In this document: in pieces, positions 1-4,748 of the stretch
Layout of the letters: each line of letters starts with the position of its first letter
Numbering within the stretch: the first letter of the stretch is position 1
NCBI GenBank assembly: GCA_964291285.2
Contig: OZ219785.1
Location: forward strand, 832,001 to 896,000
Direction of reading: 5' to 3'
Length of the DNA: 64,000 nucleotides
DNA from: Alphaproteobacteria bacterium
GTDB lineage: Bacteria > Pseudomonadota > Alphaproteobacteria > Bin95
The notes under the pieces: generated by a model
What the model was told of the DNA's origin: nothing
Seen by the model: the letters and a program-made list of their open reading frames with translations, nothing else
Database searches by the model: none
Program-made: the position numbers and the translations under genes

Positions 1-1806
1 TCGACGGGAGCACGGACGCTCGCCGCGCTGAGAGAGCGCCATGGCGGCGCGGTGGTGGTGGTGGACGAGATGTCGCTGGCGGGCACGGCGCAGGCGCGCG
101 CGCTGCTGCGGATTGCCGAGCGCCTCGATATCGCCCGGCTCGTGCTTGTGGGCGACAGCCGGCAGCTGCGCGGCGTGCAGGCGGGCCAGCCCTTCCGGCA
201 GATGCAGCAGGCGGGCTTGGGCGTCGCGGAGATGGACGAGGTTCGCCGGCAGCAGGACCCGGACCTGCTGGCCGCCGTCCAGGACATGATCGAGGGCGAG
301 CCGGGCGCGGCGCTGGAGCGTCTCGGAGGCAACCTGCGGGAACTGCCGGCCGAGGAGATCGCGGGCATGGCGGCCGCGCTCTGGCTGCGGCTCTCGCCCG
401 GGGCGCGGGCGGGGACGGCGCTGCTGGTTCCGACGCGCGCGCTCAGGGCCGAGGTCGAGGAGGCGGTGCGCGAGGGCCTCGAAGCCGAGGGCGCCCTGCA
501 CGGGTCCTCCATCGGGATCGAAACGCTCGTGCCCCTCAACCTCACGCGCGCGGAGACGGGCGACGTGCGCAACTGGCGCGAGGGCGACATCGCGCTCTTC
601 AACCGCGAGCGGAAGAACTACCGCATCCGCAAGGACGACGCCTGCACGGTGATGGAGGTGGAGGAGGACCGGGTGATCCTTGCCCATCCCGATGGCCGGC
701 CGCGCCACCTGAAGCCCGGCGGCGACCTGCGCTACCGGCTGGACCTGTTCGAGGCGAAGACGCTGCGGATCAGGGAGGGCGAACGGCTGCGCTGGACCCG
801 CAACGACAGGGAGCGCGGCCTCGTCAACGGCGACCGTGTGGAGGTGGCCGCGATAGGAACCGGAGCGCTCCGCATGCGCCTCTCCGACGGGCGGGAGACG
901 CGATTCGCGCTCGACGACCCGCAGCTTCGTCATCTTGCATACGCCTATGCGTCCACCGTGCATGCGGCGCAGGGGCAGACGCACGACCGTGTGGTCGCGG
1001 TGCTGGACACGGGCGCGGGGCCGCTGGTGAACCAGCAGACGCTCTATGTGCAGCTGAGCCGGGCGCGCGAGGAGGCGCTGGTGCTGACCGACAACCGCGA
1101 GCAGCTTGTGGAGACGCTGGAGGCGAACACGGGCGAGCGGCTGACGGCGCTGGAAGCCATCGGCGAGGCGGAGACGATGAAGGCGCCGGCGAAGCGTGCG
1201 GTCTCCGGGGAGGCGGCGTCTGCGTTCCTTGACGGCCTGCGCGCGGAGCGGGAGCGCCGCGCCGAAGCGGCGGCGGCCTTGCGCCGGCTGGCGGAGGCCG
1301 AAGCAGCGCTTGCCGCGGCCCGCGCCCATGCGCAGGAAGCCGGATGCGCCTTCGCCGCCCTGCCGGCGGTCGGGCCCGGCGGCGGTCAGACCCTCCGCGA
1401 CCGCATTGCGGCGGCCGAAATCGTGCAGGAAGCGGCGCATGATGTCTCGGCTGCCGCCCATGCGGTGCTGGAGGCGGCGAAGGCGGCGGACCGCGTCCCG
1501 CCGCTCGACGATGCCGCGATGGAGGCGGCGAAGACGGGTGAGGCGGAGGCCGCGGCGCGCCTTGTGGCATACCGGTCGCTGGAGACGGCCGTGACGGCGG
1601 CGAACAGGGCGTCCGGACGGCTGGCGCCCGCAGGCGCGCTCCGCGACAAGGATATCGACGGGGCTTCGATGCAGCGCCATGGCGCCGCCGCCCGGGAGGC
1701 GGCCGCCGCCTTCGACACCCTCGCGCAAAAGGCGCGGGCAGCGGGCGAGGCGGCGCTGGCCCGGCGCGCGCGGGAGAGGGGCACTACCTGCGGCGGAGTG
1801 CGATAG
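1..1806 (+). CDS. Conjugative relaxase-helicase (TrwC/TraI/TraA-like), helicase part; 5' end outside the window, truncated by the repeat-spacer insertion
   Basis: SF1 helicase motifs VVVDEMSLA, LVLVGDSRQL, YAYASTVHAAQGQT, LYVQLSRAR; frame open from base 1; stops at a TAG (1804-1806) inside spacer 1. Confidence 0.85.
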   Translation, partial: STGARTLAALRERHGGAVVVVDEMSLAGTAQARALLRIAERLDIARLVLVGDSRQLRGVQAGQPFRQMQQAGLGVAEMDEVRRQQDPDLLAAVQDMIEGEPGAALERLGGNLRELPAEEIAGMAAALWLRLSPGARAGTALLVPTRALRAEVEEAVREGLEAEGALHGSSIGIETLVPLNLTRAETGDVRNWREGDIALFNRERKNYRIRKDDACTVMEVEEDRVILAHPDGRPRHLKPGGDLRYRLDLFEAKTLRIREGERLRWTRNDRERGLVNGDRVEVAAIGTGALRMRLSDGRETRFALDDPQLRHLAYAYASTVHAAQGQTHDRVVAVLDTGAGPLVNQQTLYVQLSRAREEALVLTDNREQLVETLEANTGERLTALEAIGEAETMKAPAKRAVSGEAASAFLDGLRAERERRAEAAAALRRLAEAEAALAAARAHAQEAGCAFAALPAVGPGGGQTLRDRIAAAEIVQEAAHDVSAAAHAVLEAAKAADRVPPLDDAAMEAAKTGEAEAAARLVAYRSLETAVTAANRASGRLAPAGALRDKDIDGASMQRHGAAAREAAAAFDTLAQKARAAGEAALARRARERGTTCGGVR

Positions 1807-1963
1807 CGAGGCAGCGCTGGCCCGGCGCGCGCGGGAGAGGGATGTCGAAATCTCCGCAGCCGGGCACGCTCGCCGCGCTGGCCCGGCGCGCGCGGGAGAG
1901 GGAGGCGCCCGTCGTCCAGAAACCCTTCGGTGATCGCGCTGGCCCGGTGCGCGCGGGAGAGGG
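1753..1963 (-). CRISPR. CRISPR-like mini-array inside the relaxase gene: 4 repeats of 28 nt, 3 spacers of 33 nt
   Basis: GCGCTGGCCCGGCGCGCGCGGGAGAGGG at 1753, 1814, 1875, 1936 (last copy has 1 mismatch); three unrelated 33-nt spacers; 61-nt period and core resemble type I-E repeats; no cas genes in the window; strand inferred from the I-E resemblance. Confidence 0.8.
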
Positions 1964-2877
1964 CTTCGGACCTCGGGCTGGCGGCGCTGCACTGGAGCTA
2001 CAGGCTGGCGGGCCACCGGTTCGCGGTGGCGCGGCTGGCCGAGCGGGACATGGCGCTGCCGCACACGGTCGGGGACGTGCGGCGCTGGCAGGACCTGCGC
2101 CGGCGCCAGGCGGACGCGCGGACCGGGGCGGCAGCCGCGGCCGAGGCGGTCGCGCCGGAGAGCGCGGACGCGGCGGCCCGGTGGCGTGAACAGGCGGCGG
2201 ACTACCGCAAGCAGGCCGGCGCGATACGCGGCTCGCTGGCGGAACTGGAGGGGCTGAAGACGCTGGTGCGGACCGCGGAAGCCGCGTCGGACGACGCGGC
2301 GGCATGGAGCGCGGCGGCGGGCGCGGCGGAGACGATCCGGAAAGGCTCCGGCCGGGGTCTGGAGGATGAGGCCGCGCGCGTGCGTGACGAGGAGGCGCGC
2401 CGCCGACAGGAAGGGCGCGAGGCGGCGCGGGCACGTTTCGAGACCCTGAACTCGGAATGGGACGCGTTCGAGAGGGCGGTCAGGGCCGGGGGGCGGGTCG
2501 GCTTTGCGGACAAGCGCAGCCGGCAATATGTCGACCGCGCGCGGCGGCTGGAGGCGGACCCCGATCTCGATGCGGAAGCGAAGGAGACGCTCGCGGCGTT
2601 CCTGCACGAGCACGATGTCGTGCGCCCGAAGGTCGTCCGGCGCTGCCGGGAGCTGTTCGCGCAGTGGAACGCGGTCCGCGCAACGGCAAGGGCCCGCGGC
2701 GTCGGCCGGTTCATCCCTCCGGAGAGCGCGGAGGTCGTTGCGGGGATGCGCAAGCTCGCCGCCGAGAGCCCGGAGCACCTGACGCGCAGACAGAAGGAGA
2801 CATTCGAGACGATCGCCGAGGAATACGTCCTGCATGTCGAGCGGCAGCGGACATGGGTGATGACCATGAGGCCGTGA
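1930..2877 (+). pseudogene. Detached C-terminal helical tail of the relaxase-helicase
   Basis: Same frame as 52..1806; deleting 183 nt (3 x 61) gives continuous ...AALARRARER-ASDLGLAALHW... Confidence 0.75.
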
Positions 2878-3228
2878 GCGAGCGGGCCGGACCCCGGCGG
2901 CGGGCGCTGTTGTCCTCATCGGTCGGACAGCAGGGCGACGGGACGACTGCAACCATGGCCGAAGACCCTGGCAGAAGACGGGGAACGCGTCAGCTTCCGG
3001 GAACGCCGCCTGCCCGCGACGCGAGAGCCGCATGTCCGGCGCTGCAACGGCCATGCAATCCAGGCTCGAAAGCCGCATGATCCACCATGCAATCCGGCAA
3101 TATGCGACACAGTGAATATTGTATATCCATTCCCGATTCAACAATGAAAACAGAATGTTGGTGCCATGACTGAACTATATGATATATCCACAACATCCGT
3201 AACGAAGGCCATATAACCTGCTGTCCGG

Positions 3229-3678
3229 TCATCCTGCGCCGCCCGTTCTCCCGCCACCGGCCCGCATCGCCGCCCGGCGGGCGATGTCGGCAGCGCGCTC
3301 CGGGCCGGTGACCGGCGCCAGCAACGCTTCCATCCCGCTCCTTCGGCCCTCGCGCACCATTTCGTCGAGGCGCGCCTCGAACAGCAGCGCGACGGTCTCG
3401 CGAAGCCCGGTGGGCGCATCGCCGGAAAGGCCCGACAGCGCCGCCGCCGCGCCGAGCACCGCATCGTGCAGGCCGCGTTGCCGCTTTCCGTCCAGCACCA
3501 GCCCATGGCCGGCCTCCCCGGCGCCGATGCCCGTGCGCTTCAGAACCCGGCCCACGATGTATGGCGAGGTCCGCATGCCGGCCCGTTCCGCAAGCTCCCG
3601 CATCCGCGCCCATTGCTGCGGCGTGCAGGAGATCGAATGCGACACCGGGAGCTCTTCGGGAGCCTTCCGCCCCCTCAC
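3229..3678 (-). CDS. Ribbon-helix-helix (MobC/CopG-like) protein
   Basis: SHSISCTPQQWARMRELAERAGMRTSPYIV, a beta-alpha-alpha pattern; GTGA overlap with the upstream gene. Confidence 0.6.
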   Translation of the reverse strand: MRGRKAPEELPVSHSISCTPQQWARMRELAERAGMRTSPYIVGRVLKRTGIGAGEAGHGLVLDGKRQRGLHDAVLGAAAALSGLSGDAPTGLRETVALLFEARLDEMVREGRRSGMEALLAPVTGPERAADIARRAAMRAGGGRTGGAG

Positions 3679-4037
3679 GGCGAACCGTCCCCGAACAGGT
3701 CCGCGCCGCCGCCCGCGGGACGAGAACCGCCGCCGCGCCTGGCACGGCCTTCCTTCCGCTGCCGGAACCGAAGCTCGCTGGCAAGGAATGCGAGCGCCTC
3801 GGCCATCGTCACCCCGCTGCCGGGCAGGGGGCCGGCAAGCCCGTCGCCGAGGGACGCAGGCCGGACCGCGCTGTCGTGCAGGGCGCGCTGCTCGTCGCCC
3901 GTCAGCGCCATCCGGCAGTCCTCGCCCAGCACCTCCCTCAGGATGAAGGCCGAGGTCTTCATCCCCGCTTCCTCCGCCAGCGCCCGGATCGCCCGCCAGT
4001 CCGACTGCGGGCAGGTGATGCAGTATTGCCGGGCCAT
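3675..4037 (-). CDS. Ribbon-helix-helix (MobC/CopG-like) protein
   Basis: MARQYCITCPQSDWRAIRALAEEAGMKTSAFIL; ATG at 4037 just after the upstream stop. Confidence 0.6.
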   Translation of the reverse strand: MARQYCITCPQSDWRAIRALAEEAGMKTSAFILREVLGEDCRMALTGDEQRALHDSAVRPASLGDGLAGPLPGSGVTMAEALAFLASELRFRQRKEGRARRGGGSRPAGGGADLFGDGSP

Positions 4038-4038
4038 C

Positions 4039-4359
4039 TCAGCCCTCCCGCCCGTCGGCCGCCACAGACGCCTCGGCTTCCTCCACCAGCCGCCGCCAGA
4101 CACCGCCCCGGCCCTCGTCCTCGAAGCGCATGCGCTCCGCCAGCACGAGAAGGCGCAGGTCCACCAGCGCGCGGCGCCTCACCGCCAGGGGGAAGTCTTC
4201 CGGGCTCACCGCCGCCGGCTCCTCAGGCGCGAGCCCGCGCGAGACGAGGTACTCCGAGGCCGACAGGTCCGCCCTGCCGGCGCGGCTGCGGACCAGGCAC
4301 CAGTCGCTGTCGGTCGCCATCACCGAGTGCGGCCTCTTCCTGCCGTCATCCCCCGCCAT
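4039..4359 (-). CDS. Ribbon-helix-helix (MobC/CopG-like) protein
   Basis: HSVMATDSDWCLVRSRAGRADLSASEYLV; GGAGAGG upstream of ATG 4359. Confidence 0.55.
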   Translation of the reverse strand: MAGDDGRKRPHSVMATDSDWCLVRSRAGRADLSASEYLVSRGLAPEEPAAVSPEDFPLAVRRRALVDLRLLVLAERMRFEDEGRGGVWRRLVEEAEASVAADGREG

Positions 4360-4449
4360 CACGCCTCTCCCGCCCCGGGACACAGGCATGACCTGTGCCT
4401 CCCGACCGTGAACCACAGAAACGATACATCCGTGCCTATCCGCTTGTTT

Positions 4450-4748
4450 CATACACCCTACTACGACCGCACCGCCGACTACGACGCTCTGATGGTCAAA
4501 CGCAACGCCCCCCGCTGGATCCGAATGCTCCGACGATACGGCTACATCGCACCCGTCAACGCGCCAGAACTCAAGGCCGCCTGAGCCTCCTGAAACACGC
4601 CAGACGGCAACGCGGGACTGCTACGGGCCACATCGGGGAAGTCCACCGCTCGTCTCCGCCGAGCCGATCCCGGCCATACCCGCCAACTCCGCAACACGGC
4701 GTTGGAACCGCTCCGCGCGCCCTTCGGCCGAATCTGTTTCACGGCAAA
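4450..4748 (+). mobile_element. IS110/IS1111-family remnant: transposase C-terminus plus 3' non-coding end
   Basis: Peptide PYYDRTADYDALMVKRNAPRWIRMLRRYGY resembles IS110 C-termini (recalled, not searched); followed by about 160 nt of structured sequence ending TTTCACGGCAAA. Confidence 0.6.

Follow-up and report, generated by a model that had tools for sequence, protein, structure and literature searches.

We analyzed a 64,000-nt stretch of DNA (the window) from an alphaproteobacterium of the GTDB lineage Bin95 (GenBank assembly GCA_964291285.2, contig OZ219785.1, positions 832,001 to 896,000 of the forward strand), in which a gene for a TrwC/TraA-type conjugative relaxase-helicase contains a short array with the geometry of subtype I-E CRISPR: four copies of a 28-nt unit separated by three 33-nt inserts. 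This array, denoted here site A, very probably arose when the Cas1-Cas2 integrase of the type I-E system resident in the same genome integrated spacers off target three times; two further sites, denoted B and C, would each stem from one such integration. It is not settled how new CRISPR arrays arise, and this genome provides three natural events together with the alleles from before and after.

Under the mechanism that we propose, the integrase would attack a 28-bp coding stretch, the centre of which mimics the stem of the native repeat, making staggered cuts 28 bp apart and inserting a 33-nt prespacer; repair of the gaps would duplicate the 28 bp. Each new unit would be a target again, allowing site A to grow to four units and three spacers, and the same enzyme would have acted once at a second relaxase site, on contig C4, and once in a dehydrogenase gene on contig C3 (the window lies on contig C1).

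A 28+33 array inside a relaxase gene

The 28-nt unit GCGCTGGCCCGGCGCGCGCGGGAGAGGG is present in four copies in the window. The parts of the array, none of which is assigned to a strand, are as follows:

1753-1780: neo-repeat copy 1 (ALARRARER), which is the original coding unit and has the same sequence as the one unit in the C4 paralogue
1781-1813: spacer A1, 33 nt, contains TAG at 1804-1806, last base A; no match of at least 23 nt in its own genome
1814-1841: neo-repeat copy 2, 28/28 identical to copy 1
1842-1874: spacer A2, 33 nt, last base C
1875-1902: neo-repeat copy 3, 28/28 identical to copy 1
1903-1935: spacer A3, 33 nt, last base C
1936-1963: neo-repeat copy 4, C>T at 1948, which changes ALARRARER to ALARCARER

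The start-to-start spacings are 61, 61 and 61 nt, and the boundaries are exactly 28 and 33 nt because the bases next to the unit vary among the copies. Read in the frame of the gene around it, the unit is coding sequence, and the TAG within spacer A1 is the sole in-frame stop of the block, copy 4 being back in frame. The spacers are mutually unrelated, with longest common words of 4-7 nt, and the longest words that they share with their own 2x300-nt flanks measure 7-8 nt. This is the random level, given that, when a 33-mer was compared with 600 nt in 300 random trials, the commonest longest word was 8 nt; the spacers are thus diverged copies neither of one another nor of the flanks. The initial annotation of this DNA had described four 28-nt units, three unrelated 33-nt spacers and an exact 61-nt period, with a unit of ordinary coding sequence and the only in-frame stop in the first spacer, and the coordinates and the word comparison agree with it in all these points.

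The last 8 nt of spacer A1 (1806-1813) match the 8 nt located 5' of copy 1 (1745-1752) at seven of eight positions, as a result of which a repeat search reports a 36-nt family. This match is probably due to chance (about 1e-3 per comparison, with several comparisons possible).

Empty counterparts of site A exist both within the genome and among its relatives. A relaxase paralogue on contig C4, 96.5-98% identical to the window copy (the two differ by 2-3.5%), contains the site A unit once, directly followed by the sequence that lies 3' of copy 4 in the window, and in BLAST alignments this single unit matches both copy 1 and copy 4. Searching 40 relatives with window positions 1300-2400 yielded matches in 22, and nine strong-match loci, from nine same-genus genomes, were aligned. 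The 183 nt are absent from all nine, leaving one unit that differs from the unit of the host genome at several positions. Among relaxase homologues in the contig scan (five loci from metagenome-assembled genomes), all matches were uninterrupted and no further arrays were found. Removal of 183 nt, described in the initial annotation as rejoining the two relaxase frames, is therefore the state of an actual single-unit allele in the C4 paralogue and in 9/9 homologues.

Public sequencing runs were examined as Logan contigs. In run X1, a 228-nt contig spans positions 1751-1978, and thus the whole array, with 0 differences; the flanking contigs of this run carry C4 alleles. In run X2, from another sample under the same organism label, position 1765 is joined directly to 1949 on a 1067-nt contig, with 183 nt left out; the spacers are uncovered in this run, and its allele pattern is neither that of C1 nor that of C4. 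Contigs of run X3 end at the repeat borders of site A, and one 60-nt contig (window 1751-1784) continues beyond the repeat with 26 letters that do not resemble spacer A1, which may represent a different insert at site A or a rearrangement. Run X6 yielded short, unlike fragments only. Across the sister samples, site A is found with three spacers, empty and possibly with a different insert, a hint that its alleles differ among samples of one organism label.

The resident type I-E system and two further insertion sites

The native type I-E array of the host genome (C3:1389287-1393638) consists of 28 repeats on an exact 61-nt grid with one IS66 interruption. All 26 whole spacers are 33 nt long under the 28+33 convention, and 25 of them end in C on the + strand of C3, which corresponds to G in the transcribed sense; in Escherichia coli type I-E arrays, the G at the spacer end derives from the protospacer adjacent motif (PAM). 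The left end of the array bears a degenerate terminal repeat, an extra copy of which lies at C3:1388490, and the right end adjoins an AT-richer leader. Beside the leader are cas2e (TIGR01873, 103 bits), cas1e (TIGR03638, 359 bits against a cut-off of 216), cas6e, cas5e, cas7e and cse2, the entire I-E locus spanning C3:1389287-1398664. Over its whole length, the Cas1e protein can be aligned with the E. coli Cas1 of the integration-complex structures (PDB 5vvk; E-value 6e-133; about 70% identity), with conservation of the IEG, HTGKP and YDxAD motifs, which hold the catalytic residues. A host Cas1-Cas2 of type I-E, as presumed in the initial annotation, is thus present, with apparently intact cas1e and cas2e genes and an array of exactly 28+33 geometry.

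The cse1 gene is split by an insertion sequence, with profile positions 303-449 on C3 by a DDE transposase and positions 1-319 on C2 by an ISAs1 transposase (C2:533987-534994), both transposases being of the ISAs1 type, and cas3 lies apart, at C2:453701-454954, approximately 80 kb from the N-terminal piece of cse1. Judging from gene content, the adaptation module looks intact and the interference module broken and scattered; because cse1 is split, Cascade is probably dead, and the adaptation module is apparently orphaned. The genome also encodes a type II system (C1:152903-157945), with a 1055-aa open frame for Cas9 (C1:152903) and a Cas1 at 156065, which does not fit the 28+33 pattern because its array has 36-nt repeats and a 65-66-nt period.

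To survey the genome (6.1 Mb), we looked for 28-nt windows that recur at a fixed period, between 55 and 74 nt, with at least 26/28 matching positions, and a second scan, with simple filters, lowered the threshold to 22/28. At period 61, nothing but the native array and sites A, B and C emerged from either scan; the control periods 56-60 and 63-64 gave 0-7 matches each in the lowered-threshold scan. The inserts at the three sites are 33 nt long in 5/5 cases.

Site B (C4:344347-344435; locus L004, 220-308) lies in the AAA_30 region of the C4 relaxase, where CCCTCAACCTCACGCGCGCGGAGACGGG is duplicated around a 33-nt insert. The two copies share 30 nt, so that the boundary is ambiguous by 2 nt, and the duplication measures 28 nt in the best register. 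The unit is single-copy in the C1 paralogue (window 533-560) and in 8/8 homologue loci covering it; a ninth locus fell short. The upstream 708-aa and downstream 709-aa frames are offset by +1, as predicted for a 61-nt insertion, which makes the site B insertion the only lesion seen in the C4 relaxase. Site B thus frameshifts an otherwise full-length TrwC relaxase-helicase.

At site C (C3:1772442-1772530; locus L007, 1443-1531), GCCTGCCCCTCGCGCGCGCGGCGGGCGG is duplicated around a 33-nt insert, and here the duplication is exactly 28 nt. The gene that is split into two frames is chromosomal and encodes a 2-hydroxyacid dehydrogenase of the glyoxylate/hydroxypyruvate reductase type. Of 12 same-genus genomes searched, 11 have the gene, and the site is empty in all 11, one of which is 95-98% identical; the two query flanks overlap by 26-28 nt on each subject, that is, by a single unit.

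Explanations outside CRISPR biology would invoke slippage or tandem duplication, an unknown transposon that duplicates 28 bp of its target, or an error of assembly, and could draw on the GC-rich, locally repetitive character of the sequence and the extreme abundance of insertion sequences (IS) in the genome. We consider them highly improbable. Slippage cannot yield inserts that are, as here, unique and without relation to the flanks; the exact native 28+33 spacing recurs at three separate sites and at no other period; and a contig derived from short reads spans the array.

Alternatively, sites A and B might have been made in an earlier host of the conjugative element by another type I-E Cas1-Cas2 of 28/33 geometry and imported with the element. 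Both sites are in a gene of a mobile element, the relaxase copies have diverged to the extent given above, with alleles that vary among samples of one label, and no protospacer ties the events to the history of this cell. However, site C shows this signature too, in a gene on the chromosome, and is empty in every same-genus genome that has the gene, including the close relative, which argues that an enzyme of this geometry acted in this lineage. Moreover, all three units match the native repeat of this genome in register. Import of A and B is accordingly an unlikely account, and we infer that catalysis was by the resident Cas1-Cas2 and that the integrations occurred within this lineage. The suggestion of the initial annotation that the host integrase hit a repeat-mimicking coding site three times gains support from the geometry of the I-E system, from the empty alleles and from the existence of sites B and C.

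Target choice and origin of the spacers

When compared in register with the native 28-mer, the units are identical to it at 14/28 (A), 15/28 (B) and 15/28 (C) positions. Counting both strands, 0.91% of the 28-mers of the genome reach at least 14 identities and 0.28% at least 15. All three units share with the native repeat C8, C9, C13, C15, G16, G18, G20 and G21, which make up its hairpin stem, and all three have a (CG)n centre. The shared core, CC...C.CG.G.GG, which was defined post hoc, occurs 1068 times in the genome and is several-fold denser in the Ala/Arg-rich relaxase gene, which in part accounts for this gene being hit twice. Because the core is palindromic, the orientation relative to the native repeat is tied for A (14 vs 14) and C (15 vs 15); for B, the strand that matches the native repeat scores 15 vs 12. 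The claim that the core of the site A unit is in register with a type I-E repeat therefore stands insofar as the 14 identities centre on the hairpin core, with the qualification that the match is partial and its orientation ambiguous.

The terminal bases of the inserts are no more than suggestive. Spacers A2 and A3 and the insert of site B end in C, as does that of site C on the flipped strand, so that the putative PAM-derived base is present in four of five inserts. The initial annotation had interpreted the final C of the second and third spacers in this manner; both do end in C, as do nearly all native spacers, but the first spacer ends in A, and the PAM itself was not found.

Several observations weigh against integration by the resident Cas1-Cas2 or leave parts of it unsupported. 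In addition to the final A of spacer A1, the count of four in five depends partly on the strand chosen. More than 100,000 28-mers of the genome match the native repeat as well as the A, B and C units do, and likeness alone consequently does not explain the choice of sites. No protospacer was found for the five spacers in their own genome, 50,697 phage records, 72,556 plasmid records or 36 family genomes, a search that excluded IMG/VR and metagenome contigs; the foreign origin of the spacers and an AAG-type PAM are thus unproven. Run X1, which spans the array, may be the assembly's own data and hence not independent support. Finally, no motif resembling that of the integration host factor (IHF) was found within 150 nt of A, B or C in a scan for matches to the IHF consensus core. 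In this respect the sites differ from off-target sites in E. coli, where IHF-like motifs favoured integration according to PMC9456107. An IHF-like core motif, of a kind found 288 times in the genome, lies in the native leader, about 20 nt away from the repeat. The integrations at A, B and C appear to depend on neither a leader nor an IHF motif.

The spacers of the three sites, at 64-82% GC, resemble the host in composition. Against their own genome, the five spacers gave partial matches of at most 22 nt. The whole array yielded two weak matches among the phages, on the repeat part only, and short GC-rich partial matches in 110 plasmid records, where none of the 22 matches listed covers a whole spacer. 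With sites A, B and C as queries, the 36 family genomes returned repeat-unit or compositional matches only. The search for protospacers and an AAG-like PAM envisaged for the array spacers thus came out negative in all four collections.

One candidate source was examined and set aside. The junction of spacer A2 and repeat 3 (window 1856-1892) matches the 5' end of a gene for a luciferase-like monooxygenase at 33/37 positions in two genomes (G007, locus L051, 1501-1537; and G014, locus L052). We judged this match compositional, as about 0.3 such matches are expected by chance over the whole search in a GC-adjusted estimate. Primed acquisition against the resident element is likewise unsupported: the 26 native spacers have no full-length self-target in their own genome and none in the relaxase element.

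Insertion products, known parallels and neighbouring features

The native repeat RNA is predicted to form a 7-bp stem with a tetraloop (-15 kcal/mol, z -3.7), and 0/200 shuffled sequences fold as well. For the repeat RNA of site A, the folding energy is -7.6 kcal/mol or -10.4 kcal/mol, and 176 or 171 of the 200 shuffles, respectively, fold at least as well; the B unit folds no better than shuffles on either strand. The C(+) RNA reaches -19 kcal/mol with a different geometry, and 25/200 shuffles do as well. The flanks of the three sites are GC-rich coding sequence with no leader-like stretch. Given the lack of a Cas6e-type hairpin and of a leader, and the split cse1, the products at A, B and C are probably inert integration scars or proto-arrays rather than working arrays.

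The same observations bear on the possibility, raised in the initial annotation, that site A is a mini-array or decoy borne by a mobile element, considered here as a functional one that would guide the host Cascade or soak up Cas proteins. Mini-arrays on mobile elements are known, and site A does sit in a gene of a conjugative element. Its repeat, however, is ordinary coding sequence, single-copy in 9/9 homologues, with neither hairpin nor leader-like flank; the Cascade to be guided is probably dead; and a like event has occurred in a chromosomal metabolic gene. A functional mini-array therefore seems most improbable.

Off-target integration itself is already known. Nivala, Shipman and Church (2018, Nat Microbiol) reportedly obtained neo-CRISPR loci in E. 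coli by off-target integration with over-expressed Cas1-Cas2, and noted putative natural cases in two other species. The sites described here have in common with these loci a spacer-sized insert, a repeat-length duplication, a repeat-like non-CRISPR target, growth of an array by repeated hits and subtype I-E. They differ in being natural, in numbering three in one genome and in that a paralogue, relatives or both carry the empty allele of each. The 2018 paper is cited in 10.1101/148544, PMC7054753, PMC6698737, PMC9456107 and PMC11788318; the first of these calls the natural evidence 'circumstantial' and gives it for two other species only.

The native I-E array and the three sites are alike in the 61-nt period, the 28-nt duplication, the 33-nt insert and the C that ends most inserts on the equivalent strand; the native array differs in its 7-bp stem and tetraloop, its AT-richer leader with an IHF-like motif and its adjacent cas genes. 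Isolated or orphan arrays offer a further parallel, in that integration into repeat-like sequence away from cas genes has been proposed as their origin. Off-target acquisition is said to be one of the three routes to isolated arrays distinguished by Shmakov et al. (2020, CRISPR J). The repeats of most isolated arrays are identical to cas-adjacent ones, whereas those described here, which are plain coding sequence and disrupt the genes in which they are found, share only 50-54% identity with the native repeat. De novo off-target spacer acquisition as a source of isolated arrays is also cited in PMC13142298.

A literature search on neo-CRISPR and related phrases, which did not extend to supplements, found no natural off-target array in a relaxase gene among the matches listed. 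The present case is a further, very clear natural example of off-target integration. Unusual aspects are that a single genome has three sites that arose naturally and independently, all with known empty alleles, that both paralogues of one relaxase gene received insertions, that an array of three spacers has built up although its repeat is no more than 50% like the native one, that the adaptation module is apparently orphaned and that samples hint at polymorphism. Two of the three sites hit are in the two TrwC relaxase paralogues, which together make up about 0.14% of the genome. It is conceivable, albeit doubtful, that off-target integration in this lineage is recurrent, possibly ongoing and non-random.

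If these readings are correct, a Cas1-Cas2 that has outlived a broken Cascade would act as an insertional mutagen that preferentially disables genes of conjugative elements, exerting an interference-independent effect on mobile elements while seeding new arrays from coding DNA. The three sites show that adaptation has a cost, with a relaxase broken twice and a dehydrogenase broken once, and that marks can still be left by an adaptation module whose interference module has decayed. With a native array at hand and an integrase so similar to the E. coli enzyme, target choice is directly testable.

The relaxase gene in the window comprises, beyond the array, the following features:

1-1806, + strand: helicase part, 5'-truncated, of a TrwC/TraA-type conjugative relaxase-helicase, with UvrD_C_2 and with AAA_30 beginning at profile position 70; ends at the stop in spacer A1
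533-560, no strand assigned: the unit CCCTCAACCTCACGCGCGCGGAGACGGG, present once here as an empty site; in the C4 paralogue, two copies of it enclose a 33-nt spacer (site B)
1930-2877, + strand: C-terminal remainder of the relaxase gene, sharing the frame of 1-1806; 97.9% identity to C4 345628-347154 in alignment

In the profile search, the TraI and TraA models scored below cut-off on the window relaxase frames. The C4 paralogue keeps the full N-terminus, with TrwC residues 29-307 and the whole AAA_30 domain. Homology of the window copy to it begins at window position 10, and the matching N-terminal 1.6 kb (TrwC) of the C1 relaxase is inverted, about 7 kb upstream, among IS-like repeats. With this part displaced, the C1 relaxase is broken by rearrangement as well as by the array, which is not the sole lesion there. 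The idea that the array truncates the relaxase is thus correct in that the TAG in spacer A1 ends the frame, with the reservation that the rearrangement breaks this copy too. A near search of window positions 1-2900 against plasmids gave no match.

Downstream of the relaxase, on the minus strand of window 3229-4452, are three adjacent small frames of 149, 142 and 137 aa with a similar central motif (...SPYIVGRVL, SAFILREVL and SEYLVSRGL, respectively). These have the look of a small DNA-binding protein in tandem paralogous copies. A 1218-aa frame with a SIR2_2 domain (C4:338181-341837; locus L008, 181-3837), which may be a defence gene on the element, lies immediately upstream of the C4 relaxase on the minus strand. 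The IS and repeat load of the host genome is very heavy, with dozens of near-identical copies of 1.3-1.8 kb (for example, at C1:60421, C1:801135, C3:404704 and C5:393100), and the genome also contains multi-copy elements bearing 7-nt tandem runs, (AGGCGCG)n.

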